Shown in pieces: positions 8,672-32,387 of a stretch of DNA of 64,000 nucleotides (the stretch's first letter is position 1; each line of letters starts with the position of its first letter). The notes below the pieces were generated by a model that saw only the letters and a program-made list of their open reading frames with translations, had not been told where the DNA came from and did no database searches. This DNA is from Burkholderiales bacterium (GTDB taxonomy: Bacteria > Pseudomonadota > Gammaproteobacteria > Burkholderiales > WYBJ01). A program made the position numbers and the translations under genes. The stretch is from the NCBI GenBank assembly GCA_020848435.1, contig JADLAC010000037.1, positions 108,355-172,354 of the forward strand. Reading direction: 5' to 3'.

Positions 8672-9433
8672 TTACCGAAAGGCGCGCGGGCGCAAGCCGG
8701 CATGAAACCAGCAAATCATGGAATAGATATCGTAGACGGGCAAGCCGAGCTCCGCCTGGAGTGCGGCCGCATAGGGCGGCATGTTGGTGCATTCGAGCAC
8801 GATGGCGCCGACCTCCGGATGGCGGGCAAGCAATGTCCTGCCCGCCGCCACGATGTCCTCGCGCGCGAGCGCGATATCCATGTCCTGTTTTTCCGCCAGG
8901 ATCAACACGCGGAAGAATTCGCGGCCGTCCTCCGTCCCCACGAGCGGCGTGTCCGGCGGCACACCCGCCGCGTCCAGATGGGCGGGCGTGAGCGTGGCCG
9001 CGCTCACGGTGATCACGCCTACCCGTTTTCCGGGGGGAAGCGTCGCCTGCACCCACGCTACCTGCAGCAGGGAAGACGTCGCGACGGGAACGCCGGCGGC
9101 TGCCGCAAGCTCGCGCTGAAAGAGCGACAGGAAACCGCAATTGGTCGTGATGGCCTCAGCGCCGAGATCGACCAGGTCACGTGCGGCGGCGATGAAGTCC
9201 GGCAGCAGGCCGCGTGCGCCCTTCAGCACGACCCGCTCCGGACTCGCACCGCGCACGACCCGAAACAGCACTGGAAAGGGCCACGTCGTCGCGTTGCCCA
9301 TGTCGCCCGCGATGCGCGGAAAGCGCGCCTCGAGCATCAGGATTCCGAGCGGCGCACCGTAGAGCGCTTTGCCGCCGCGGGCGAGCCCTTCGAGACCGGA
9401 AATAGGCATGCGGCAGTGCTCCTGATCGTCCAT
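8672..9433 (-). CDS. Asp/Glu/hydantoin racemase superfamily protein
   Basis: Two catalytic-Cys blocks typical of the superfamily (AITTNCGFL and IVLECTNMPPY). The start was chosen at MDDQEHC (9433); starts at 9523 or at MPISGL are also possible. Confidence 0.7.
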   Translation of the reverse strand: MDDQEHCRMPISGLEGLARGGKALYGAPLGILMLEARFPRIAGDMGNATTWPFPVLFRVVRGASPERVVLKGARGLLPDFIAAARDLVDLGAEAITTNCGFLSLFQRELAAAAGVPVATSSLLQVAWVQATLPPGKRVGVITVSAATLTPAHLDAAGVPPDTPLVGTEDGREFFRVLILAEKQDMDIALAREDIVAAGRTLLARHPEVGAIVLECTNMPPYAAALQAELGLPVYDIYSMICWFHAGLRPRAFR

Positions 9434-9635
9434 CGTGCGAGGTCCCGCTGCAACTCGAGTTGGCTGCCGCTTTGGCAGATCGGTACGTACGGACAGCATA
9501 TGCCGGCGGGTTATCCGCGGCAAGACGAGCGCGTGCCGTGCCCCATCGGGCGGCGAGGCTGTTCGATTGCTTTACGCGCCGTGGGGCAACGGTTACAGTA
9601 CGCGCCGAGCAGCACCACAGCCAAGGAGGAGACCC

Positions 9636-18784: not shown

Positions 18785-20014
18785 TCAGAAATACGCCTGT
18801 CCGCGCCGGATCGGCGGGGTCCACGAGCAATCGCCGAACGGACCGTCGCCGTGCTCGCGTATGTAGGCGATCCGGCGGTGGCGGCGCGAGAGCTTCCTGC
18901 CCATCATGGTCATTTGCAGCCAGTCGAGCACGTAGTCGTGGCAATCCAGTCCGCCCAGGTTGGCAATGCTCCACAGCGGGTGGTACTGATTCTCGAACAC
19001 CCACATTTCCTTCGGCACGCGCAGGTCTTCGAACGCCTCGACCGCGTCCTCCAGCGGGCACAGTGGATCGAATTCGCCGGTGACGAGCAGCGTCGGGCAG
19101 GTGATCTTGTCAAGGTGTCCGCGCACCGTCATGTTGTTCGCGACTTCCTCGTCGAACTGCTCTTCGTCCTCGTAGCCCGCCATGTACATGAACATCTGTT
19201 TGAAGCGCGGCGAGGACTGGGTGAAGATGGTGTTGTTCGGGTTGAAGCAGGCGACCGAGCTGACCACGCAGGCGGCCCGGTGATCGTAGCTCGACAAGCG
19301 CAGCGACCAGTAGCTGCCCATGCTGATGCCGTAGATCGCGATCTTGCGCCGGTCGACCTCGGGCCGCTGCTGCAGGTAGCTGATCACCGCCGCGCCCGCG
19401 CGCTCGTAGTTGTCGCCGATGGCTCGGATCTTCTGCAGGTTCGAGCTGCCTTGGCCGGGACCGTCCATCGCGAGCACATGGAAGCCGCGTTCGATGGCGA
19501 TGTTGTGTGCGGCTTTCGGAAACACCTCCTTGGTCTGATCCATGCCGGGCACGTAGATGACGCAGGGTGCCTTGCGCCGATCCGGCAGTAGGTGGAGCAG
19601 GCACGATATGGTCTTGCCGTCGTCGAAGGGCACTTCCACCCGCTCGATCGGGTAGGAGGCGACTTCGCTGCGCCGGTCGACCATTTCGTTGAGCTTGCGC
19701 ACGAGCTGTTTCTTGACCGGGTGGTTGTCGAAGTAGATCGGGTGCTGCGCCATCCGGTAGGCTTCGACGGCATGATCGTAGTGCGCGGTGGCGGATGCAT
19801 GCGCGCCCTTGGCGTGCGCCCTGCGCGCGAGCGCTTCGTGGCGTTCGGCGGCTTCGCGCCAGACCTTCGGCAGCATGCGATAGTTGCGCGCCCGCTTGCC
19901 TGGCGGCACTTCCAGGTCGTCGCGCTCGAAGTTCTGCACCCGCCCGCGCATGTTGAGCGCGAGATCGAGCATCCACTGCTGGTTGTCGCGCGCGGTCCTC
20001 AGTTTGCGAATCAT
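18785..20014 (-). CDS. alpha/beta-fold hydrolase (paralogue of the 1..1027 gene)
   Basis: GGAGG 8 nt upstream of the ATG at 20014 (MIRKLRTARDN...). Contains DGPGQGSS, a nucleophile elbow GISMGS, and a C-terminal acid/His region (LVTGEFDPLCP). The track ORF start at 20065 is possible but has no ribosome-binding site. Confidence 0.8.
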   Translation of the reverse strand: MIRKLRTARDNQQWMLDLALNMRGRVQNFERDDLEVPPGKRARNYRMLPKVWREAAERHEALARRAHAKGAHASATAHYDHAVEAYRMAQHPIYFDNHPVKKQLVRKLNEMVDRRSEVASYPIERVEVPFDDGKTISCLLHLLPDRRKAPCVIYVPGMDQTKEVFPKAAHNIAIERGFHVLAMDGPGQGSSNLQKIRAIGDNYERAGAAVISYLQQRPEVDRRKIAIYGISMGSYWSLRLSSYDHRAACVVSSVACFNPNNTIFTQSSPRFKQMFMYMAGYEDEEQFDEEVANNMTVRGHLDKITCPTLLVTGEFDPLCPLEDAVEAFEDLRVPKEMWVFENQYHPLWSIANLGGLDCHDYVLDWLQMTMMGRKLSRRHRRIAYIREHGDGPFGDCSWTPPIRRGQAYF

Positions 20015-23121: not shown

Positions 23122-23275
23122 GGCAGATGTTATCGTCGAGGCGCTGGGAGCGCGGCTGCTCCTCACCGCGCTCGATTCTAACGTAGCGTGCCGCTGTTCC
23201 GAGTGCCTTCCCGGGCCTGCTTCACCGGCTCGTCTTCAAGTGCGAGAATCGGCCGCCTGGGATTCAAGGAGGGTC

Positions 23276-25600
23276 ATGGACGCACAACGCTACTTCGACG
23301 TCGGCGGCATGCGCGCGCTGCGCCTGGAAGACCCGCGGCTCATCACGGGGCGAGGCCAGTATGCCGCCGACTGGAATCTCGACGGCCAATTGCACGCGGT
23401 GTTTCTGCGCTCGGATCGCGCCCACGCCCGCATCGTGAAGCTCGATTGCGCGCGCGCCCGCTCGGCTCCGGGGGTGCGTTGGATCGCCACCGGCGAGGAC
23501 GCGGTGCGTGCCGGCTTCATCAAGGCGCCGCACCAGCTCACGTTCATCGGCGTCGATGGGCGCAAGGCGCGAGTACCCGATCGCCCCGCGCTGGCCCACG
23601 AGCGGGTGCGCTACGTCGGCGAGCCGGTGGCGATGGTGGTGGCCGAGCGCGCGCTGCAAGCTCAAGACGCGGCCGCTGCCATCGATGTGACCTACCAGGA
23701 CTTGCCCGCGGCGATCGGCGCCGAGCACGCGCTCTCGCCGCAGGCCCCGAGGATTCACGACGACGTTCCGGGCAATCTCGCGCTCGAGCTGGAGGTCGGC
23801 GACCGGGCGGCGGTGGACGCAGTCTTCGCCCGCGCGCACCGCATCACGCGCCTCAAGGTCGACTGCACGCGCGTGACACCTTCTCCCATGGAGCCGCGAG
23901 CCTGCTTGTCGAGCTACGATCAGGCGCACGACTGCTACACCATTCGCGTTTGCCTGCAGGGCATCAACACGATGAAGCAGCAGATCGCCGCCTACATGAA
24001 CCTGGACGAAGCCAAGATGAGGGTGATCGGTCGCGATGTCGGTGGCGGCTTCGGCCAGCGCAGCACCGTCTATCCCGAATACTGCATGAGCTTGCATGCC
24101 GCCAAGGTCCTGGGCCGTCCGGTGAAGTGGGTGTCGAGCCGCTCCGAGAGCTTCATGACCGACACCCACGGCCGCGCCAATATCGGTGCGGGCGAGCTCG
24201 CCATGGATGCGAACGGGCGCTTCCTCGCCCTGCGCTTCGACTGGATCACCGATCAGGGCGGCTACGTCTCCTCCGGCGGCGTGGGCTACATCCGCAACAT
24301 CGTCAACTGTCTCACGGGCGTCTATGCGATACCGCTGGCGCATGCGCGTTTTCGCGTCGCGCTCACCAACACCGGCCTGGTGGCTTCCTTTCGTGGCGCG
24401 GGACGCCCGGACATCGCTTACGCCGTCGAGCGCCTGGTGCAGCAGGCCGCGGCCGATGTCGGGCTCGATGCGGTCGCATTGCGCCGGCGCAACTTCATTG
24501 CGCCGCATGCGTTCCCGTACCGCACGGCGACCGGCACGGTGTACGAGATGGCGGATCTGCCGGGCTTGCTCGAGGAGGCGCTCGCGCGCGCCGATTGGGC
24601 GGGCTTCGAGCGCCGCCGTGCTGCGGCGAGTGCCCAAGGCAAGCTTCGCGGCATCGGCATTTCGACGGTGATCGAGGCCAGCGGCGCGGGCACGGCCCCT
24701 AGGGACGAGGTCCTGCTCGAAGTCGCTGCCGGCGGCAAGATAACGGCATACTCGGCCTCGCACTCGCAGGGCCAAGGGCACGAGACCACCCTGGCGATGA
24801 TCATCGGCGCCGCGCTCGGCATCGCGCCGGAGCAGGTCGTGCTGCGCCAGGCGGTGGACGAAAAGAATCTCGCCGGCAATGCCACCAACGGCTCGCGCAC
24901 CATGGTTGGCGCGGGCAGCGTATGCAAGATCGCCGCCGAGCGCCTGATCGAGCGCGGGCGCGCGCTGGCGGCCGAGGAATTCGCTGTCGAGCCCTCCCAG
25001 GTCGATTATTCGCATGGGGTGTTCCGCGAACGCGAAAGCGCACGGATGCTCACTCTGGCCGAGGTGGCACAGCGCGGGGAATTCAGCGCCAGGGGAGAGG
25101 GCACGTTCGGCTCGACCTGGCCCAACGGTTGCCACATCGCGGAGGTCGAGATCGATGCCGAGACCGGCAAAGCCGAGATCGCAGCTTACGTCGCGGTCGA
25201 TGATTGCGGGGTCGTGATCAATCACAGCATCGTCGAAGGCCAGATACATGGCGCGGTCACGCAGGGTGCGGGCCAGGTATTCGGCGAGCACGTCGTCTAC
25301 GACCGCGACAGCGGCCAGCTCCTCACCGGCAGCTTTATGGATTACGTCATGCCGCGCGCGGGCTGGGTGCGCGAGATCCGCATGGCGGAGCGGCCGACGC
25401 CCTCGACGCTCACCCCGCTCGGGGTGAAGGGCGCGGGCGAAGCCGGCTGCACGGCCTCGCTCGGCGCGCTCAGCAATGCCGTGCACGATGCGCTGCGTCC
25501 GCTGGGTATCGGCGCGCTCGACATGCCCCTGACCGCGGCCAAGCTTTGGGGCGCGATCACGGCCGCGCGCAACCATCTCCACCGTGGGAGGATCGCATGA
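23276..25600 (+). CDS. xanthine dehydrogenase family molybdopterin-binding large subunit (CoxL-like, non-CO-dehydrogenase type)
   Basis: AAGGAGGG ribosome-binding site before the ATG at 23276. MDAQRYFDVGGMRALRLEDPRLITGRGQYAAD is a typical CoxL-family N-terminus. The active-site loop reads VASFRGAGRP, not the VAYRCSFR of true CO dehydrogenases. GVKGAGEAGC lies near the C-terminus. Confidence 0.85.
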   Translation: MDAQRYFDVGGMRALRLEDPRLITGRGQYAADWNLDGQLHAVFLRSDRAHARIVKLDCARARSAPGVRWIATGEDAVRAGFIKAPHQLTFIGVDGRKARVPDRPALAHERVRYVGEPVAMVVAERALQAQDAAAAIDVTYQDLPAAIGAEHALSPQAPRIHDDVPGNLALELEVGDRAAVDAVFARAHRITRLKVDCTRVTPSPMEPRACLSSYDQAHDCYTIRVCLQGINTMKQQIAAYMNLDEAKMRVIGRDVGGGFGQRSTVYPEYCMSLHAAKVLGRPVKWVSSRSESFMTDTHGRANIGAGELAMDANGRFLALRFDWITDQGGYVSSGGVGYIRNIVNCLTGVYAIPLAHARFRVALTNTGLVASFRGAGRPDIAYAVERLVQQAAADVGLDAVALRRRNFIAPHAFPYRTATGTVYEMADLPGLLEEALARADWAGFERRRAAASAQGKLRGIGISTVIEASGAGTAPRDEVLLEVAAGGKITAYSASHSQGQGHETTLAMIIGAALGIAPEQVVLRQAVDEKNLAGNATNGSRTMVGAGSVCKIAAERLIERGRALAAEEFAVEPSQVDYSHGVFRERESARMLTLAEVAQRGEFSARGEGTFGSTWPNGCHIAEVEIDAETGKAEIAAYVAVDDCGVVINHSIVEGQIHGAVTQGAGQVFGEHVVYDRDSGQLLTGSFMDYVMPRAGWVREIRMAERPTPSTLTPLGVKGAGEAGCTASLGALSNAVHDALRPLGIGALDMPLTAAKLWGAITAARNHLHRGRIA

Positions 25601-26577
25601 AACACCGTGCTTTCGGCCGCACCGGCCTCGAGGTTTCCGAAATCGTTTTCGGCGGCGGCGCCGTGGGCGGGATCATCATCCGCAAGGACGATGCAATCAA
25701 GCGCGAGGCGATCCGCCGGGCGCTCGCGGGCGGCATCAACTGGATCGATACCGCCGCGCAGTACGGCGAGGGCAAATCGGAAGAAGCGCTCGGTTGGCTG
25801 TTGCCCGAGTCCGGCGCGACGCCCTATCTGTCCACCAAGTTCAACCTGGACGTGGCCAACCCGGGCGACATCCCGGCACAGATCGAGCAGCGCCTGATGC
25901 AAAGTCTCGGCCGGCTCAAGCGCTCGTCGGTCGATCTGCTCCAGCTTCACAACCGCATCGGCGCGACGCCCGGCGAGCGGGTGGTGACGGTCGAACAGGT
26001 GCTCGGCAGCAATGGGGTGGCCGAGGGTCTCGAGCGGCTGCGCGCGCGCGGATTGATTCGTCATATGGGTATCACCGCTCTCGGCGAAACGCCCGCCGTG
26101 CTCGAGGTGATTCGCAGCGGGCGCTTCGATTCGGCTCAGGTGTACTACAACCTGCTCAATCCGAGCGCGGGGCGCGACATGCCACCCGCCTGGACCGGCC
26201 AGAGCTTCGCCGGCATCATCGCGGCCTGCCATGCTCAGGACATGGCGGTCATGGCGATTCGCATTTTCGCTGCCGGCGTGATCGCCACGGACGAACGGCA
26301 CGGGCGCGAAAGCATCCTGACCTCCGATACCAGCGTGGCCGAGGACGAGCGCAAGGCGCGCGCGCTGTTCGCGGCGATCGGTACCGAGCACGGCACCCGC
26401 GCCCAGGTCGCGCTGCGATTCGCGCTGTCCCACCCCGGCATCACTTGTGCCGTCATCGGCAGCGCCGAATTGCAGCACGTCGACGAAGCGTTGCGGGCGC
26501 AGGCCCTGGGGCCGCTGCCCGCCGCTGTGCTGGCGCGCCTGGATGACGTATATGCCAGCGATTTCGGCCGGGTGTAG
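25597..26577 (+). CDS. aldo/keto reductase
   Basis: MKHRAFGRTGLEVSEIVFGGG...INWIDTAAQYGEGKSEEALGWLL. Its ATG overlaps the preceding TGA in an ATGA, and GGGAGGA lies upstream. Confidence 0.85.
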   Translation: MKHRAFGRTGLEVSEIVFGGGAVGGIIIRKDDAIKREAIRRALAGGINWIDTAAQYGEGKSEEALGWLLPESGATPYLSTKFNLDVANPGDIPAQIEQRLMQSLGRLKRSSVDLLQLHNRIGATPGERVVTVEQVLGSNGVAEGLERLRARGLIRHMGITALGETPAVLEVIRSGRFDSAQVYYNLLNPSAGRDMPPAWTGQSFAGIIAACHAQDMAVMAIRIFAAGVIATDERHGRESILTSDTSVAEDERKARALFAAIGTEHGTRAQVALRFALSHPGITCAVIGSAELQHVDEALRAQALGPLPAAVLARLDDVYASDFGRV

Positions 26578-26663
26578 CCGCCAGCGATCGGTCGCGGATG
26601 CGGAAAAAATACATCTTGCATGCCGGACGACTTGGTTACTATTGACGAGCCTCCTTCTTTGTC

Positions 26664-27746
26664 TTGCCGATGGAGTACATCGACATGTCCATGGATCGCT
26701 TTTCGGAAGCTTATGTTGCCGCGCAGACGGTGGTGAAGTCCGAGCGCTTCCCGACCGACTGGGATGACGTGATCGTCGAAACGCGCGCGCTCCTCGCCGG
26801 CGAGGATGGCCCGGTCGCTGCCAAGGCGAGGGTGGTGACGGATCTGCGCAAGAAGATCGCCGAAGGCGAAAAGGCCAGCGGCACCGCGAAGGGCAAGGCC
26901 GCGTGCGAGCAGATCATAGAGGCAGCCAAGGGTACCAACGCCATTGAATCGAAGCGCGCCGCGACGCTGAAGATGTTGAAGCACCTGTACCTGGTCGGCG
27001 AAGACGGCAGCCAAAAGCTTTGGGTCTATTCGCCGCCGAAGGGCTATACGCAATGGGTTTTCGACGAGTTGGACGGCCTCGGCGAAACGGCGATGAAGGC
27101 GAAGCTCGAGGACGAGGCCGAGCTCTACAGCGCGGACCATCGAACCGTGATGGCCGAGGCTGCGCTGCAAGCGCGCAAGGTGTGCGGCAAGGTGCAGGCG
27201 GCGCTGGGCGCGAACGAGGTCGAGGCGAATACCAAGAAGCTGGTGAAGAAATGGATGTTCGGCGACGACGAGCCCTCGAAAGACGAGATGACGGCGGCGA
27301 TCAGCAAGCTGCGCGACGGTTTCAAGAACATCGGTGTGGCTTGCTGCAACGGCAGCCTGATCTTCTCCGACGAGCCCACCTACCGGGCCAAGCCCGGCAA
27401 ATGGGAGAACTTCGGGATGATCAAGACCACCGAGAAGATGATGGTGCTCTATCTCATGAAGGGATTCCTCGACCAGGCCGGCAAGCCCAAAGCGGCGGAA
27501 CGCTGGTTATGCGTCGAGACGATCATCCACGAGCTTTCGCACAAGATCGTGAAGACTGACGACTACGCCTACGACTTTCACGGTCTGAAGCCGGGCGGAA
27601 CCAAGTTCCCGTCCGGCGCCGGCCTCGACAATGCCGATAGCTGGGGCTACTTCGCTTGCGAGCTCGACGGCATCCTGCCGAGCTCCGAAGAAGCCAAGGT
27701 GTACAAGATCCCGACCAAGGTGCTCAAGGTCTGGAGCAAGGCCTAG
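26664..27746 (+). CDS. aspzincin-type (peptidase M35-like / peptidyl-Lys metalloendopeptidase-like) zinc protease with unassigned N-terminal region; no signal peptide
   Basis: HELSH at 27528-27542, KTDDYAY at 27552-27572 (fits aspzincin GTxDxxYG at T, D and Y), and DNADSWGYF at 27627-27653. The track start is the TTG at 26664. ATGs at 26670, 26685 and 26691 are alternatives, and there is no convincing ribosome-binding site. Confidence 0.75.
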   Translation: MPMEYIDMSMDRFSEAYVAAQTVVKSERFPTDWDDVIVETRALLAGEDGPVAAKARVVTDLRKKIAEGEKASGTAKGKAACEQIIEAAKGTNAIESKRAATLKMLKHLYLVGEDGSQKLWVYSPPKGYTQWVFDELDGLGETAMKAKLEDEAELYSADHRTVMAEAALQARKVCGKVQAALGANEVEANTKKLVKKWMFGDDEPSKDEMTAAISKLRDGFKNIGVACCNGSLIFSDEPTYRAKPGKWENFGMIKTTEKMMVLYLMKGFLDQAGKPKAAERWLCVETIIHELSHKIVKTDDYAYDFHGLKPGGTKFPSGAGLDNADSWGYFACELDGILPSSEEAKVYKIPTKVLKVWSKA

Positions 27747-27801
27747 CCGCGGATACATCACCAGGCCGGCCCGGCGAAACGGCGAAGTGCTCGACGCGGC
27801 G

Positions 27802-28221
27802 ATGCGAATCGCGGTTGCGCTGGTGATGGTTCTCGGGCTGCTGGCAGCGGGGTGCAGCCCCTCGGTGGCGCTCAAAAAGGAGGCAAGCATGGAACAGGAA
27901 AAACGAGGGCCGCTGCCCGAGGTCGCGCCGGTATCGCGCGGCGGTGTCCGCTACGAGCCCGTCACCTTCGAAAAGAGCGAAGGTCTCGACCAGAACAGCG
28001 GCTACATCGCGGCGGTCGACGAAGCGACCGGGATGCGCAAGTGGGTGCTCAAGGTCTACGCCGTGTCCTACAACAACGACCTCGAGGCCGATTTGCAGGA
28101 CGTTTTCATCAAGCGCCTGGAGCTCAGTGCCGACGGCAGCCGGCTCTACGTCACCAACGAAGAGGAGCGCCGCTTCGAGGTGAAGCTCGATGATCGCACG
28201 GTAAGAGAGCTGAAGAAGTAG
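27802..28221 (+). CDS. small lipoprotein of unknown function
   Basis: 139 aa from MRIAVALVMVLGLLAAGCSP (lipobox LAAG-C). It lies 55 bp downstream of the metalloprotease on the same strand. The upstream part of track ORF 27631..28221 was rejected. Confidence 0.65.
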   Translation: MRIAVALVMVLGLLAAGCSPSVALKKEASMEQEKRGPLPEVAPVSRGGVRYEPVTFEKSEGLDQNSGYIAAVDEATGMRKWVLKVYAVSYNNDLEADLQDVFIKRLELSADGSRLYVTNEEERRFEVKLDDRTVRELKK

Positions 28222-28271
28222 CCCGTCAGCGCGTTGGTTCCGCTGCGGAGCGGCCCGATGGAATAGCCGGG

Positions 28272-28865
28272 CTAGTTCTCCGGCAGCGGCGCTCGAACGA
28301 GGCGAGCCGGCCTGCGCGACAGGCCGAGCAGCCCGAGCACGCCGAGCCCGGCCAGCAGCATGGCCCAGGTGCGCGGCTCGGGCACGGGCAGCGCCATGGC
28401 GTTGGTCAGCGTGAAGGCGAGGTCTTCGTAGGTATCGTTAGTAGCGTAGAGATCCTCGAAGCGAACACGCAGCGTGTTGCCCCCGAGCTCCTCGACGATC
28501 GCGTGCGTAAAGCCGTCGGGATTGCGGCTCGCCGGGCCGGTGTAGTAGATGGCTTCCAAGTCCCCGCCGAGGCCGTCGGGGTAGACCTCGATACCGAACT
28601 TGAGCTCGCCCGAGGCGAACGTGCCCAGATTCACTTCCGTACCGGGGGCCGTCGCTTGATTGTTGAAGATATTGGGCAGCGGGTTATCCGGGTGGTCCAG
28701 GAACAGCAGGCTGGTGTAGCTCGCGCCGCCGTTGCCTTCGAAGGTCGCCACGACATCGATATTCGAGTCCACGGCGAAAATCAGGTCGCCCAAGCCGGCA
28801 TGCGCGAGTCCCGAGAGCCCGATCGATGCGGCGGCTGCGAGCGCTGCGGCGAATCTTCTTGTCAT
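28272..28865 (-). CDS. PEP-CTERM-anchored secreted protein (possibly DUF4114-like domain)
   Basis: 197 aa. Signal peptide MTRRFAAALAAAASIGLSGLAHA, and a C-terminal PVPEPRTWAMLLAGLGVLGLLGLSRR, which is the PEP motif + TM + basic tail. VRFEDLYATNDTYEDLAFTLTN resembles the DUF4114 signature; that match is tentative. Confidence 0.8.
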   Translation of the reverse strand: MTRRFAAALAAAASIGLSGLAHAGLGDLIFAVDSNIDVVATFEGNGGASYTSLLFLDHPDNPLPNIFNNQATAPGTEVNLGTFASGELKFGIEVYPDGLGGDLEAIYYTGPASRNPDGFTHAIVEELGGNTLRVRFEDLYATNDTYEDLAFTLTNAMALPVPEPRTWAMLLAGLGVLGLLGLSRRPARLVRAPLPEN

Positions 28866-28963: not shown

Positions 28964-29998
28964 TCACGCGCGCTCTGGGACGTGGACCACTTCGGTGCGT
29001 CCCAGGGAGTCGACAAAATATGCGCGTGCCGAGGCATAGCGCGCGAGCAGGGCATGGGCGCGCGGCGGCGCCAGCAGTGACAGGGTGGTGGAGAGACCAT
29101 CGGCCAGGGTGGCGCGCGGGGCCGCCGCGGAAACCGAAAGGTAGTGGTTGGCGCTGCGCCCCGTGTAGGGATCGAGCAGGTGATGGATCCGCGGGTCGGG
29201 ACCGAAGGTCGTGCCGTAGCCGGCCGAGGTCGCGAGCGCCGGGAAGGCACCGGGGCCCTCGCCGAGCGCGAGGGTCGCCAGCATACGCGCGGGGTCGCGC
29301 GGGTCGCGCACCGCGGCCTGCCAGGGGAGGCCGTCGGCGCGTTGTCCGAGCGCGCGCGCTTCGCCCAGGTCGACCAGGACGTGATCGAATCCGGCGGCGC
29401 GTAGCCGATCCGCCGCGCGGTCGGTGATGAAGCCTTGCGCGATCCCGTTGAGCGTGATCGCCATGCCAGGCTTGCGCAGCCGGATGCGATCCGAGCCGAC
29501 TTCGATCGAACGGTAATCGACCCGCCGCAGGACGCGCGCAATCTCCTCCTGCGAGGGCGCGCGAACGGCGCCGCGCGCGAAGTGGCAGGCATAAAGCCGG
29601 TACAGCGGCTGAATGCTCGGGTCGAACGCGCCTTCGCTCGCCCTCGCCAGGGCAAGCCCGAAGGCGAGCAATTCGACCAGCTCGTGCGGCGGGGCGTACA
29701 GCGCGCCGGCCGCGTTCAATCTCACCAGCGCCGAGTCGGCGCGGTAAAGGCTGAAGATCGCCTCCAGCCGCGCGATCTCGTCCACGCAGGCGTCGATCGC
29801 CGCGCGTGCCTTGGCGCGATCCGGATGCACCAGCGTCATCGCCGCGGCCGCGCCCATGACCGTGCCGCGCCACGTGCTCACGGCCGGCGCCGTCATGCCG
29901 CGGGCCAGTGCGATCGGCCCGGCCGCCGCGCACGCCGCGACGATGGAGAGGAATCGACGGCGCGTCTTCATGGCGAGCGGGTGGGCGTGTTTCGTCAT
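28964..29998 (-). CDS. apbE: FAD:protein FMN transferase (ApbE family)
   Basis: MTKHAHPLAMKTRRRFLSIVAACAAAG (Tat-like signal) followed by the ApbE body (FDPSIQPLYRLY, ITLNGIAQGFITDRAA, DGLSTTLSLL). The start could also be 29971 or 30028. Confidence 0.85.
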   Translation of the reverse strand: MTKHAHPLAMKTRRRFLSIVAACAAAGPIALARGMTAPAVSTWRGTVMGAAAAMTLVHPDRAKARAAIDACVDEIARLEAIFSLYRADSALVRLNAAGALYAPPHELVELLAFGLALARASEGAFDPSIQPLYRLYACHFARGAVRAPSQEEIARVLRRVDYRSIEVGSDRIRLRKPGMAITLNGIAQGFITDRAADRLRAAGFDHVLVDLGEARALGQRADGLPWQAAVRDPRDPARMLATLALGEGPGAFPALATSAGYGTTFGPDPRIHHLLDPYTGRSANHYLSVSAAAPRATLADGLSTTLSLLAPPRAHALLARYASARAYFVDSLGRTEVVHVPERA

Positions 29999-30013
29999 GC
30001 GCGTGCCTGTCGT

Positions 30014-30110
30014 GCGGGTCGGATCCATCAGCGGGTCGGGTCCATCATCGGGGATGGGTCTATCGGCCGGGTCGGGTCCATCACGTGGCTCGGGTCCGTC
30101 ATGCGGGTCG
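30014..30110. repeat. imperfect tandem repeat, 17-18 bp period, 5-6 units (consensus about GCGGGTCGGGTCCATCA)
   Basis: Read directly from the sequence: gcgggtcggatccatca / gcgggtcgggtccatca / tcggggatgggtctatcg / gccgggtcgggtccatca / cgtggctcgggtccgtca / tgcgggtcg. It fills most of the 136-bp spacer between the nosR-like stop and the apbE start. Confidence 0.8.
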
Positions 30111-30134: not shown

Positions 30135-32387
30135 TCACGGCGCGGTCTCGGCCGGGCGCTGCGCGTGAGCCGCAGCCGCGGCGCCGCTTTCGGCGCCTAG
30201 CGCGGGCGCCATGGCCGAGCGCCGCTCGCGCTTCAGGCGCCGCTGAATGCGCACCGGGCACTTGTGGTCGTGGTAATACAGCATCTGGCAGTGCAGGCAG
30301 GAAATGCACTCGTTGGGATTGATGTGCCCTTCGGGATGAATCGCTTCGACCGGGCAGTCCTTGAAGCAGCGCTGGCAAGGATTGCCGCATTCGCGATAGC
30401 GCTTGAGCCAATCGAACATGCGAATGCGCCCCGGAATCGCGAGTGCCGCGCCGAGCGGACACAGGTAGCGACAGAAGAAGCGCTCGATGAACAGTCCCGC
30501 CGCCAGCAGCACAAGCGCGTAGGCCACGAACCACCATTCGCGCATGAAGCGCAGGATGACCGCGGTCTTGAACGGCTCGATCTCCGAGAGCATTTCGGCG
30601 TAGGCGAGGGAGCCGAGCGATACGCCGAACAGGCCGAGAAAGATGATGTACTTGATCGGCCACAGGCGCTCGTGCACGCGCCAGGGAATCTTGTATTGCG
30701 GTACCTTCAAGGCCCGTGCGGCCCGGTTGGTCAGCTCTTGCAGCGCGCCGAACGGGCACAGCCAGCCGCAGAAGGGGCCGCGGCCCCAGAACAGCAGCGC
30801 CGCCGCCACCGAGCACCAGAGGATGAAAATGAGCGGGTCGACCAGGAACGCCGACCAATGGAAGCCTTCGCGCAGGGCAGTGGTGAACGTGAGCACATTG
30901 ACCACCGAGAGCTGCGCTTGCGCTGTCCACCCCAGCCAGACCAGGACGCCGGCAAGATACGCGTAGCGCACCCGCAGATAGAGCGTCTCGCGTCTCACCA
31001 GGAAGTCCTGGAAGAAGAAGATGACCGTGAGCACGCCGAGCATCAGGGCCAGCACGGCGATCGCGGCCGCCCTGCTGTACCAGATGCGCTGCCACAGCGG
31101 CGGTCCGGAGTCGAGGGCCTCAGGGGCCGCGTGCGTGCTGGATGCTGCCGTGCTCGCGCCGCCACCTGCCGGCGCCACGGCCTTGGTGTAGATCTCGGGC
31201 AACTGGTAGGCGAGGTCGAACGCGACGAACGCCTTGTCGAGCGCGCCGGTCGTGCGTTGCACGAGCAACTGCAGCCGCCATGGCGCGACCGGGTCGAAGT
31301 CGCTGTCCGCCGGGATGAGGAATGCGTCGATATCCTTGAGCTCGGGCGCGCCGGGCGCGTGCACGCTCGCCACGCGCCGGTGGTGACGGTCGCGAAAACG
31401 GATCGTCTCGGCGCCCTGGATGAGCTGGATGCGATCGAAGCTGTCCCCCGGGACATAGCCCGGCCCCTTGTACGAGTAGCCGCCGCCGCTCGCCACCAGG
31501 ATCGCCTGTTCTCCCGGTTCGAGCGACTTGGCAAGCGTCTCGTAGGCCTCCTCGCCGAGCAGGCTGCGGCCGATCGCCGGATGCGAGACGAGGGCGACGT
31601 AGAGGTCACTGAAGGTGTTTTCGCTCGGCGCGATTTCAGGGCGCTGCGCCGCTTCCTTGTCGCCCGAATCGACGAACGCCTTATTCACTTGTCCTACCGT
31701 GAGGAGCATGCGGCGTACCGCGCCCGCCTGCAGCAAGCCGTTCCAATCGACGCTCGGGCCGGCTTGGGGATCGAGCACGCGCGCCGCCGGCGCCGGCGCG
31801 GCGCCGCCCGCTTGCAGCGCGCGGCTCACCCGCACCGCGGAGCGTACGACGCTCTCGCCCATCACCAGCACCGTCACCGTGGCACCGCTCACGATGTCCG
31901 GATGCGGCGAGCCTTTGCCCGACGCGGCGGCCTTGACCGGGTTATAGCCCACGAACGATTGCAGATAGGCGACGACCTTGCGCTCCGGAATGCCGATCAG
32001 AACGATGGGCTCGCTGTGCTCGACCAGCTTCGCGCCGACGATGGTGCCTTCGAGATCGAGGCCGATGAGAATATGGATCGGCTTGCCGGAGTAACCGTTC
32101 GCGTCCACGTACTGCGAATTGAGGTAGACGTGGCCGAGCAGCTTGTCGGCGCGATACGCCGGCGCGACGAGCGGGGATTCGCGTACCGGCCCGAAGCGAT
32201 CCGCGCCCGGAATCACTTCACCCGGTGCCACCCTGGCGAGAAAGCCACCGAGGCTCGCCGCGGCGGATTGCGCGCCTGAGGGCCCCGTCGTGCTCGCCGT
32301 GCCGGGTTGCGCGTCTGCCGCCGCGGCGCATAGGCAAAGAAACCATGCTACGACTGCGAGCGCGGTATGGCGCATACGAAAGCTCAA
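30135..32387 (-). CDS. NosR/NirI-family membrane flavo-iron-sulfur protein
   Basis: 750 aa with a signal/anchor, a periplasmic FMN-binding domain carrying the flavinylation motif DIVSGATVT, multiple TM segments, CPFGALQE and CPLGAALA (CX3CP) motifs, and C-terminal ferredoxin-type Cys clusters (CGNPCQRCFKDCP; CISCLHCQ...KCP). Confidence 0.85.
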   Translation of the reverse strand: MSFRMRHTALAVVAWFLCLCAAAADAQPGTASTTGPSGAQSAAASLGGFLARVAPGEVIPGADRFGPVRESPLVAPAYRADKLLGHVYLNSQYVDANGYSGKPIHILIGLDLEGTIVGAKLVEHSEPIVLIGIPERKVVAYLQSFVGYNPVKAAASGKGSPHPDIVSGATVTVLVMGESVVRSAVRVSRALQAGGAAPAPAARVLDPQAGPSVDWNGLLQAGAVRRMLLTVGQVNKAFVDSGDKEAAQRPEIAPSENTFSDLYVALVSHPAIGRSLLGEEAYETLAKSLEPGEQAILVASGGGYSYKGPGYVPGDSFDRIQLIQGAETIRFRDRHHRRVASVHAPGAPELKDIDAFLIPADSDFDPVAPWRLQLLVQRTTGALDKAFVAFDLAYQLPEIYTKAVAPAGGGASTAASSTHAAPEALDSGPPLWQRIWYSRAAAIAVLALMLGVLTVIFFFQDFLVRRETLYLRVRYAYLAGVLVWLGWTAQAQLSVVNVLTFTTALREGFHWSAFLVDPLIFILWCSVAAALLFWGRGPFCGWLCPFGALQELTNRAARALKVPQYKIPWRVHERLWPIKYIIFLGLFGVSLGSLAYAEMLSEIEPFKTAVILRFMREWWFVAYALVLLAAGLFIERFFCRYLCPLGAALAIPGRIRMFDWLKRYRECGNPCQRCFKDCPVEAIHPEGHINPNECISCLHCQMLYYHDHKCPVRIQRRLKRERRSAMAPALGAESGAAAAAHAQRPAETAP

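Follow-up and report, generated by a model that had tools for sequence, protein, structure and literature searches.

A leaderless M35 protease gene and its lipoprotein neighbour in a Burkholderiales bacterium: a probable orphan type VI secretion effector-immunity module with a candidate two-start immunity gene

The two genes and their protein families

Two adjacent "hypothetical" genes of a Burkholderiales bacterium (GenBank assembly GCA_020848435.1, contig JADLAC010000037.1, positions 108,355 to 172,354 of the forward strand) encode a predicted metalloprotease without a signal peptide and a small protein with a lipoprotein signal. The whole stretch of 64,000 nucleotides that was analysed is called the window here, and positions are counted from its first letter. 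On the basis of sequence comparisons and structural models the two genes can be annotated with confidence, as a candidate type VI secretion system (T6SS) toxin and its candidate immunity protein, and the latter may be produced from two translation starts. The features of the pair, all on the forward strand, are the following.

26672-26675 (+): Shine-Dalgarno-like GGAG, 9 nt upstream of ATG 26685, read from the sequence
26685-27746 (+): protease (candidate effector) gene, 353 amino acids from ATG 26685, from the list of open reading frames (ORFs) and Pfam PF14521
26664-27218 (+): N-terminal, family-specific, mainly helical domain, residues ~1-185, from the AlphaFold 2 model
27225-27659 (+): aspzincin (M35) catalytic domain, residues 188-332, from Pfam, Foldseek and the family profile
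27528-27542 (+): HELSH, zinc-binding/catalytic motif, residues 289-293, with H289, E290 and H293 invariant in 20 family members
27555-27575 (+): TDDYAYD, aspzincin third-ligand motif TxDxxY, with D300 as the predicted zinc ligand
27630-27653 (+): NADSWGYF helix, counterpart of NADNHEYF in solved M35 enzymes, with Gly328 in place of Glu
27802-28221 (+): candidate immunity gene, long form, a 139-amino-acid prolipoprotein starting 55 bp after the protease stop, from the ORF list and the sequence
27802-27855 (+): lipoprotein signal peptide MRIAVALVMVLGLLAAG-C, with the codon of Cys18 at 27853-27855
27879-27883 (+): internal Shine-Dalgarno sequence GGAGG (context AAGGAGG, 27877-27883), 5 nt upstream of the in-frame ATG 27889
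27889-28221 (+): candidate immunity gene, predicted short (cytoplasmic) form, 110 amino acids from Met29 (MEQEKRGPLPEV...)
27931-28212 (+): conserved domain of the immunity protein with eight beta-strands, which form two blades of a PQQ/BamB-like beta-propeller in the model

The protease reading frame (26664-27746, +) has 360 codons when counted from TTG 26664, and the residue numbers of the protease are counted from there. ATG 26685 is the likely start rather than this TTG because a GGAG is found 9 nt in front of it, because the same protein is 353 amino acids long with this start in the database cluster P0001, and because homologues align from MDRFSEAY on in an alignment of 20 family sequences. 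The N-terminus (MSMDRFSEAYVAAQ...) has no hydrophobic stretch and therefore no signal peptide, in agreement with the original prediction. That prediction was built on three motifs in the 360-codon frame, HELSH, KTDDYAY (27552-27572) and DNADSWGYF (27627-27653), all of which are confirmed by the sequence and by their invariance in the family. Besides the HELSH residues, T298, D300, Y303 and D304 of the second motif and N323, A324, D325, W327, Y329 and F330 of the third are invariant in the 20 sequences, and G328 is conserved in at least 90%.

The aspzincin domain proposed from these motifs was recovered both by the profile search and by the structure prediction with Foldseek that had been suggested as checks. 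Aspzincin_M35 (PF14521) is the sole Pfam match of the protease; it scores 50.4 bits, above the cut-off of 30 (E 4e-13), and extends over residues 188-332 of the protein and positions 6-142 of the 142 in the profile. An NCBIfam search rendered nothing relevant, and a search of the PDB sequences with the single protease sequence gave no match. The AlphaFold 2 model (predicted local distance difference test score, pLDDT, 86.3; predicted template modelling score, pTM, 0.87) consists of an ordered helical N-terminal domain and a C-terminal domain. Its only significant fold matches in the PDB are AsaP1 (2x3b, E 5.4e-4) and deuterolysin (1eb6, E 9.1e-4), both with a probability of 1.00 and with template modelling scores normalised to the target of 0.41 and 0.64 respectively. 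Among the PDB sequences, those of peptidyl-Lys metalloendopeptidase (E 2.1e-6) and AsaP1 (E 1.7e-5) are also matched by the family profile. The alignments to 1g12 and 2x3a pair HElsH with HESSH, TdDhrYD with GTKDYAYG and NADsWgYF with NADNHEYF; the Gly residues flanking the third-ligand motif are not conserved in the protease family, and the spacer from HExxH to Asp is two residues shorter. By profile, modelled fold and invariant motifs, the C-terminal half of the protease can be assigned to the aspzincins.

The first ~150 residues had been regarded as impossible to assign, which turns out to be too pessimistic, since the first ~185 residues form a confidently modelled helical domain that is conserved in the family and limited to it. 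The model has helices at 13-106 and a small sheet at 108-122 with a pLDDT of about 90. Foldseek found no PDB fold match for this domain, and profile alignment showed no similarity to the AsaP1 propeptide. A phmmer search with the domain against 1.84 billion representatives returned 140 proteins, all ~330-390 amino acids long or fragments and all of the same type, so the domain always sits on this protease. The possibility that it is a modular T6SS marker of the MIX or FIX kind was rejected for that reason.

A search of 5.8 billion proteins gave at least 153 homologues of the protease, and all matches listed carry PF14521. Most are 330-390 amino acids long and are aligned over ~94% of the query, and therefore the N-terminal half is conserved as well. 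The family is compact (~340 amino acids) and spans Beta-, Gamma- and Alphaproteobacteria, Gemmatimonadota and Polyangia. The closest named relative in the genome scans is Rhodocyclus purpureus with 66% identity, and the window protease is 64-79% identical to the other intact members of its own clade, here called the window clade.

The second gene was described correctly as a 139-amino-acid protein with a lipobox, 55 bp downstream on the same strand. Judged by consensus, its leader (MR-IAVALVMVLGLL-AAG-C) has a positively charged n-region, a hydrophobic h-region and a lipobox ending in Cys, and the Kyte-Doolittle maximum over 11 residues is 3.05. A direct search with the window lipoprotein gave 15 close homologues, several of them on short contigs shared with protease homologues. 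Downstream of the more distant protease homologues there are usually two small genes with one common conserved domain, the first leaderless and the second with a signal peptide or a lipobox. The consensus of the shared domain is KRxGPxxVxPV..RYE..WG..RGLxQNGGY..A.D..G..LW.L.VY...YD...E.DVQDVFI...L...DE.GR.Y.VD.

The AlphaFold 2 model of this domain has eight strands (pLDDT 86.8, pTM 0.78), and Foldseek matches it to two-blade propeller pieces and to BamB with E between 2e-3 and 3e-2. Weak Pfam matches to PQQ_2 occur in 48 of 83 family members (best E 8e-4), and Pfam gave no match for the 139-amino-acid protein of the window alone. A profile search with the domain found 401 members, none with a Pfam assignment. 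A fragment of two propeller blades would be an unusual fold for an inhibitor and may oligomerise.

Genomic context and translation starts

Genome scans with the protease protein and the family profile gave 52 distinct loci; the total of distinct protease loci after removal of duplicates, used below, is 65. Linkage to a T6SS was scored by tblastn with the T6SS proteins of Azoarcus sp. DD4 and a VgrG in the fetched flanks. T6SS core genes were found in the flanks of 22 of the 65 loci, which is far above the expectation for a random gene, and the protease gene is then typically placed directly after clpV. In Azoarcus sp. DD4 the gene order is tssC (VipB), hcp, hcp, impE, tssE, tssF, tssG, clpV, the M35 protease gene, two small genes encoding 114 and 137 amino acids, and a gene with tetratricopeptide repeats (TPR) and a methyltransferase domain. 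The same placement was found in Plasticicumulans, Methylomonas, Methylobacter, Xenophilus, Crenothrix, Rhodanobacter, Sedimenticola, Vibrio albus and others, and the arrangement recurs in many Gamma- and Betaproteobacteria. Free-standing three-gene modules occur elsewhere, for example in a metagenome-assembled genome (MAG) of Caulobacteraceae and in Motiliproteus.

At nearly every one of the 65 loci the protease gene has a homologue of the small gene next to it, in the contigs of the window clade as well as in distant loci. The pairing of an effector with its immunity protein had been proposed from the geometry of the two genes in the window, with co-occurrence and proximity to secretion loci as checks; both have now been made and, at the level of the family, both agree with it, in that the two families are located together at nearly every protease locus and 22 of the 65 loci lie in T6SS clusters. 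The module is found in a different neighbourhood in each member of the window clade and is for that reason accessory; there is no sign that it arrived recently in the window.

Some of the T6SS clusters contain additional genes. A protein of ~450 amino acids with TPR and a C-terminal S-adenosylmethionine (SAM)-dependent methyltransferase domain (L014:11824-13179; also in loci L005, L007, L008, L009, L003, L022, L031 and L035) is encoded after the protease-immunity module in many of them, often just before vgrG; this gene is absent from the window. A second, divergent protease paralogue (~35% identity, with HELTH or HEFSH) is present in some clusters (L009:8143-9162 plus 9266-9565; L038:18093-19121 plus 19436-19738) and has its own single immunity gene with a signal peptide, which also bears an internal Shine-Dalgarno sequence and ATG. 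A third kind of M35-like ORF (L035:5856-6785, 309 amino acids, HEATH...TDDEAY...NADSYAW) reaches 26 bits with PF14521, below the cut-off, and sits between the family protease and the TPR-methyltransferase gene.

The number of small genes and the position of their starts differ between lineages in a regular way. ATG 27889 is in frame just ahead of the conserved domain of the window gene. The short form that begins with it has been called in the database cluster P0121 and in several homologues; its start falls within the same few-residue stretch upstream of the domain as the starts of the leaderless paralogues at other loci. All six small genes of the window clade have an in-frame hydrophobic leader that ends in Cys, and all six have a GGAG 5-6 nt before the conserved internal ATG, with varying residues at this GGAG (KKEAS, AEKP, REEH, QEKR, VEKR and TERT). 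Their upstream start codons, ATG 27802 in the window, have no visible Shine-Dalgarno sequence. About as many public gene calls use the one start as the other.

For a comparison across loci the small genes were anchored on a hidden Markov model of the domain and then classed by leader and paralogue. Thirty loci have a leaderless and a signal-peptide paralogue, and eight have only a leaderless gene. A Shine-Dalgarno-like motif followed by an in-frame ATG that lies no more than a few residues from where the domain starts is present in 20 of 22 signal-peptide genes that stand alone and in none of the 30 that stand beside a leaderless paralogue, counted after two corrections of class by hand (L023 and one gene of L009); the uncorrected script gave 20/23 versus 1/30 (Fisher p = 1.7e-10). 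By sequence, the genes with the signature form at least eight distinct groups, in which the peptides surrounding the Met differ and the small gene may be located upstream or downstream of the protease gene. An accident inherited once therefore does not explain the pattern.

This complementary distribution implies that one gene would provide immunity in two compartments. The simplest reading is a need for two forms, one cytoplasmic and one exported, which a single gene is able to provide. We lean, by a modest degree, towards the view that the protease family needs immunity in the cytoplasm and in the periplasm, that this need is met interchangeably by a pair of paralogues or by one lipoprotein gene with two starts, that the two-start solution evolved or was retained in eight lineages or more, that of the window among them, and that the immunity module is a free-standing fragment of a two-blade propeller. 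The partner had been taken for a periplasm-facing lipoprotein. The lipobox agrees with this, but the protein is probably not only that, because the internal Shine-Dalgarno sequence and ATG should also give a cytoplasmic form. No report of an arrangement with two paralogues or two starts was found in the literature for this protease family, so the dual-compartment architecture and its single-gene version, as in the window, appear to be new.

The presence of either two paralogues or one gene with two starts constitutes a natural experiment, and dual-localised immunity is testable by a few point mutations. It also carries a warning for annotation, because either start call alone loses half of the biology of the small gene if both starts are used.

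One locus with only a leaderless immunity gene beside the protease homologue (L026) is part of a 509-kb contig (WNWL01000006.1, with the label Oceanobacillus sp. HTM 045) that is assigned to a Gram-positive genus. It could represent a genuine monoderm carrier, which would fit with the lack of an exported form; alternatively, the assembly could be mislabelled or contaminated.

The immunity domain is not confined to loci with the protease. A genome scan with the immunity profile, run with a narrowed and less diverse alignment, found at least 27 loci where a gene for this domain has no adjacent family protease or HExxH ORF. They come from Verrucomicrobiota, Planctomycetota, Myxococcota, Spirochaetes and Omnitrophota, among other phyla, and from one MAG labelled as an archaeon, and are found among loci L097-L133 (e.g. 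L112, L116, L119, L125, L131 and L132). Either these are immunity genes in an orphan position or the domain has partners besides the protease; the scattered copies in distant phyla fit the behaviour of orphan immunity genes.

Known systems and alternative explanations

Domain identity and fold of the protease, the linkage of the two genes, the T6SS linkage in relatives and the two-start signature together make it probable that the pair is a copy of a T6SS effector-immunity module, an M35 toxin with an immunity protein encoded by a single gene with two starts. The copy in the window is called an orphan because there is no T6SS gene in the window. We infer toxicity, dependence on a T6SS in this organism, inhibition by occlusion of the cleft and use of both starts, which might be combined as follows. 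The 353-amino-acid protease would be made without a leader in the cytoplasm, with H289, H293 and D300 predicted to bind zinc and E290 to act as the catalytic base. It would presumably be loaded as a T6SS cargo effector and injected into neighbouring bacteria, where its proteolysis would be toxic. The small protein would be the cognate immunity protein or inhibitor, with its propeller-like domain of two blades and ~95 residues most likely binding over the protease cleft. Protection would be required on both sides of the inner membrane, and most relatives would obtain it from a leaderless and a signal-peptide paralogue and the window clade from one gene with two translation starts. Translation from ATG 27802 would give a lipoprotein for protection of the periplasm from toxin that arrives from outside, and translation from the internal ATG 27889, with its strong Shine-Dalgarno sequence, a cytoplasmic form of 110 amino acids that neutralises, and possibly chaperones, newly made toxin.

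Protease toxins are, to our knowledge, among the least understood T6SS effectors, and we know of no M35-type example with a known substrate. The comparative signal described here is clear and suggests that the proteases of this family have targets, or at least pose a danger, in the cytoplasm as well as in the periplasm.

The probable nearest characterised relative is T6EC12 with T6IC12 of Methylocaldum szegediense O-12, described in a preprint dated 2026-09-28 (bioRxiv 10.64898/2026.09.28.754971) and compared here by description only. According to that preprint, T6EC12 carries PF14521 with HELSH at 301-305, D312 and E341 in a new two-domain scaffold, has no signal peptide and is presented as a cargo effector encoded beside T6SS core genes. 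It is reported to be toxic in the cytoplasm and the periplasm of Escherichia coli and in yeast and to cause filamentation, and its active-site mutants are attenuated. T6EC12 is found in Methylococcaceae with homologues mostly in Betaproteobacteria. T6IC12 is predicted to cover the cleft, and an AlphaFold 3 model places T6EC12 in the Hcp ring. In the abstract, cognate immunity is stated to be validated for two of three toxins, which are left unnamed, and the methods include a rescue assay with T6IC12; the evidence given for T6EC12 is toxicity (bioRxiv 10.64898/2026.09.28.754971).

The likeness to the window pair comprises Aspzincin_M35, HELSH, an Asp at +11 from the first His, two domains with C-terminal catalysis, the lack of a signal peptide, a T6SS neighbourhood (in the relatives of the window protease) and a small adjacent immunity protein. 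The toxicity in two compartments also matches the dual-compartment immunity proposed for the window family, and would explain why immunity is needed in two compartments. The two differ in that T6EC12 is described with a Glu at +40 from the first His, where the window protease has Tyr329 and all 65 loci have Tyr; an HExxH at 301 with Glu at +40 was found in no protease of these loci. T6EC12 may thus represent a sister subfamily. The preprint deals with one immunity protein and contains no mention of paralogue pairs or internal starts.

The Tpe-Tpi family (VgrG2b C-ter/PA0261 of Pseudomonas aeruginosa, Tpe1/Tpi1 of Acinetobacter baylyi and M35-PAR of E. coli PAR) also combines an HExxH toxin with an adjacent immunity gene, as in the window. 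The immunity proteins of that family are targeted to the envelope, in Enterobacteriaceae as lipoproteins, and intoxication disturbs cell division and morphology. VgrG2b C-ter/PA0261 and Tpe1/Tpi1 are validated T6SS metallopeptidase toxins that act only in the periplasm and have envelope-targeted immunity (PMC6899460). The VgrG2b/Tpe1-type domain has been called M35, and its DUF2345 adaptor was shown by Wang et al. (PMC10673891). In contrast to the window protease these toxins are either part of a fusion with VgrG or dependent on a DUF2345 adaptor, their cytoplasmic form is harmless (PMC6899460), and no leaderless immunity form has been reported there. Their immunity proteins appear to be unrelated to that of the window family, although no sequences were compared directly; the T6EC12 preprint calls the immunity protein of the Tpe-Tpi homologue "totally different". 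Similarity of the window protease to VgrG2b was looked for and not found, with no VgrG2b chain among the Foldseek matches listed or among PDB profile matches at E up to 10, in database copies in which the presence of the solved C-terminal domain was not checked.

The classical enzymes of MEROPS family M35 (peptidyl-Lys metalloendopeptidase 1g12 of Grifola frondosa, AsaP1 2x3a/2x3b of Aeromonas salmonicida and deuterolysin 1eb6) share the fold, HExxH, (G)TxDxxY(G) and NADxxxYF with the window protease. They are extracellular with a signal peptide and a propeptide, whereas the window protease is leaderless with a different, helical N-terminal domain; a precursor of that kind is typical of the characterised enzymes and does not belong to the definition by catalytic features. 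Further differences are the linker between HExxH and Asp, which is two residues shorter in the window protease, and Gly328 in place of the Glu of NADNHEYF. That Glu helps to form the Lys-specific S1' pocket, and since Gly328 replaces it, the specificity of the window protease may differ from that of the Lys-specific enzymes.

An experimental precedent for a lipoprotein immunity gene with internal translation starts is Tli of Enterobacter cloacae, an immunity factor for which internal starts give an additional product in the cytosol and whose periplasmic and cytosolic pools have distinct roles (bioRxiv 10.1101/2023.03.28.534661). The Tle/Tli system differs from the window family in having a phospholipase effector and an unrelated immunity fold, and the role of cytosolic Tli is activation of the toxin rather than (only) protection from it. 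The internal starts of Tli were deduced from mutants, and those of the window family from the conserved Shine-Dalgarno sequence with ATG and the complementary distribution of leaderless paralogues.

A number of observations speak against the interpretation of the pair as a T6SS effector with two-compartment immunity. No T6SS gene was found in the fetched flanks of 43 of the 65 loci, tblastn detected none of the core genes (tssC, hcp, tssE/F/G, clpV, vgrG) in the 64-kb window, and none were seen in the contigs, mostly short, of five other members of the window clade. T6SS delivery of the window copy is extrapolated from relatives with 35-45% identity. Two loci with a lone signal-peptide gene, L052 and L111, are without the internal Shine-Dalgarno sequence and ATG, and the conserved internal GGAG overlaps a conserved Glu codon, so that part of its conservation could be at the level of the protein. 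With regard to T6EC12, no Methylocaldum locus was found in two scans of genome collections (with the protease profile and the immunity profile). The original prediction that the window contains no T6SS gene accordingly stands, but the export route is not as open as it was then considered, because the relatives point specifically to a T6SS.

The alternative that fares best concerns the small gene. It might make one product, either only the 110-amino-acid form, with the leader untranslated, or only the lipoprotein, with the internal Shine-Dalgarno sequence and ATG as a by-product of a conserved Glu-x-x-x-Met peptide. The even split of the gene callers, the lack of a recognisable Shine-Dalgarno sequence at ATG 27802 and the coincidence of the GGAG with a Glu codon are all in its favour. 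An untranslated leader is difficult to reconcile with a hydrophobic stretch that ends in Cys in six of six clade members despite their divergence, and such a leader is present in every other single-gene lineage too. Nor would a by-product be expected to appear only where the leaderless paralogue is missing (20/22 versus 0/30), or with residues around the internal start that differ between lineages (KKEAS, QEGKK, KEEHT, SEEVKV, LEAE, QEKK and others). We consider a single product unlikely.

A second alternative, which we consider improbable, is that the module is no longer a weapon here and has become an addiction-like toxin-antitoxin cassette or is kept only for immunity against attackers with the same toxin. 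This would account for a pair that stands as an orphan among metabolic genes, in 64 kb without T6SS genes, and for a window clade that is orphan throughout, as far as the contigs show; host-like codon usage suggests long residence, and loci with only immunity genes are common. However, the protease ORF is intact with every invariant residue of the family, and its 64-79% identity to intact clade members argues for purifying selection on the toxin. Orphan effector-immunity pairs that are served by a distant T6SS are also commonplace.

The weakest alternative is a conventional secreted protease with a periplasmic inhibitor, in analogy with the alkaline protease AprA and its periplasmic inhibitor AprI, in which the protease takes a route out of the cell other than a T6SS and the lipoprotein shields the envelope during transit: it would suit a leaderless protease with an exported partner and the lack of T6SS genes in the window and in the flanks of 43 of 65 loci, but it is very unlikely given that no type I, type II or other secretion genes adjoin the pair in the window or in the annotated orphan loci, that one third of the loci lie inside T6SS clusters directly after clpV, that a leaderless paralogue or an internal start is unexpected if only the periplasm needs protection, and that orphan inhibitor copies in many phyla fit an immunity arms race.

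Neighbouring genes and base composition

Domain annotation of the neighbours confirms that the pair is flanked by unrelated genes, as had been noted. They encode a molybdopterin hydroxylase subunit, an aldo/keto reductase, a PEP-CTERM protein, ApbE and a membrane protein with FMN_bind and Fer4_5 domains. The spacer between the stop of the aldo/keto reductase gene (26577) and the protease ORF is 86 bp, again as first described. The three downstream genes, for which no link to the pair was seen, are located as follows.

28272-28865 (-): PEP-CTERM sorting-signal protein, directly downstream of the pair on the opposite strand
28964-30028 (-): ApbE flavin transferase, downstream of the pair
30135-32387 (-): membrane protein of 750 amino acids with FMN_bind and Fer4_5 domains, NosR/NirI-like by architecture

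No tRNA genes were found in the window, and no direct or inverted repeats above chance level flank the pair. Scans of 26400-28500 rendered no promoter-like site and two terminator-like sites, which is chance level. Synteny was examined by way of the upstream aldo/keto reductase; 35 loci with 68-79% identity keep none of the window neighbours except the molybdopterin hydroxylase in one, and the comparison is uninformative as a test for an empty site.

The pair had been described as an islet of lower GC content and as a likely horizontal acquisition. The first part holds, with a GC content of 0.60-0.64 over the pair and 0.65-0.73 around it in windows of 500 nt, and the GC content of the protease gene (0.612) is the lowest among 46 ORFs of the window chosen as likely genes. 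Horizontal acquisition is not supported, because the GC content at third codon positions (GC3) and the codon usage match the flanks. The protease gene has a GC3 of 0.853 compared with 0.857 +/- 0.020 in 32 reference genes of the window, and an index similar to the codon adaptation index of 0.717 compared with 0.694 +/- 0.041; the small gene is within ~1.4 standard deviations on GC3 and ~1.1 on the codon index. The richness in AAG-encoded Lys, which had been read as a sign of transfer, loses that meaning as well, since the proportion of AAG among AAG and AAA codons is the same in the protease gene (36/40) as in the reference genes (387/432). Lys, Glu and Asp make up 26% of the protease and 12.6% of the reference set, and the GC deficit lies in codon positions 1 and 2. 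The low GC content of the protease gene is thus due to an amino acid content rich in Lys, Glu and Asp, and that of the pair is not evidence of recent transfer.

The long antisense ORFs at 23264-25582 (-), 25342-26478 (-) and 26235-27170 (-), which overlap real genes, are not genes themselves but an artefact that is usual in DNA with ~67% GC, the coding frames having a GC3 of ~0.85.

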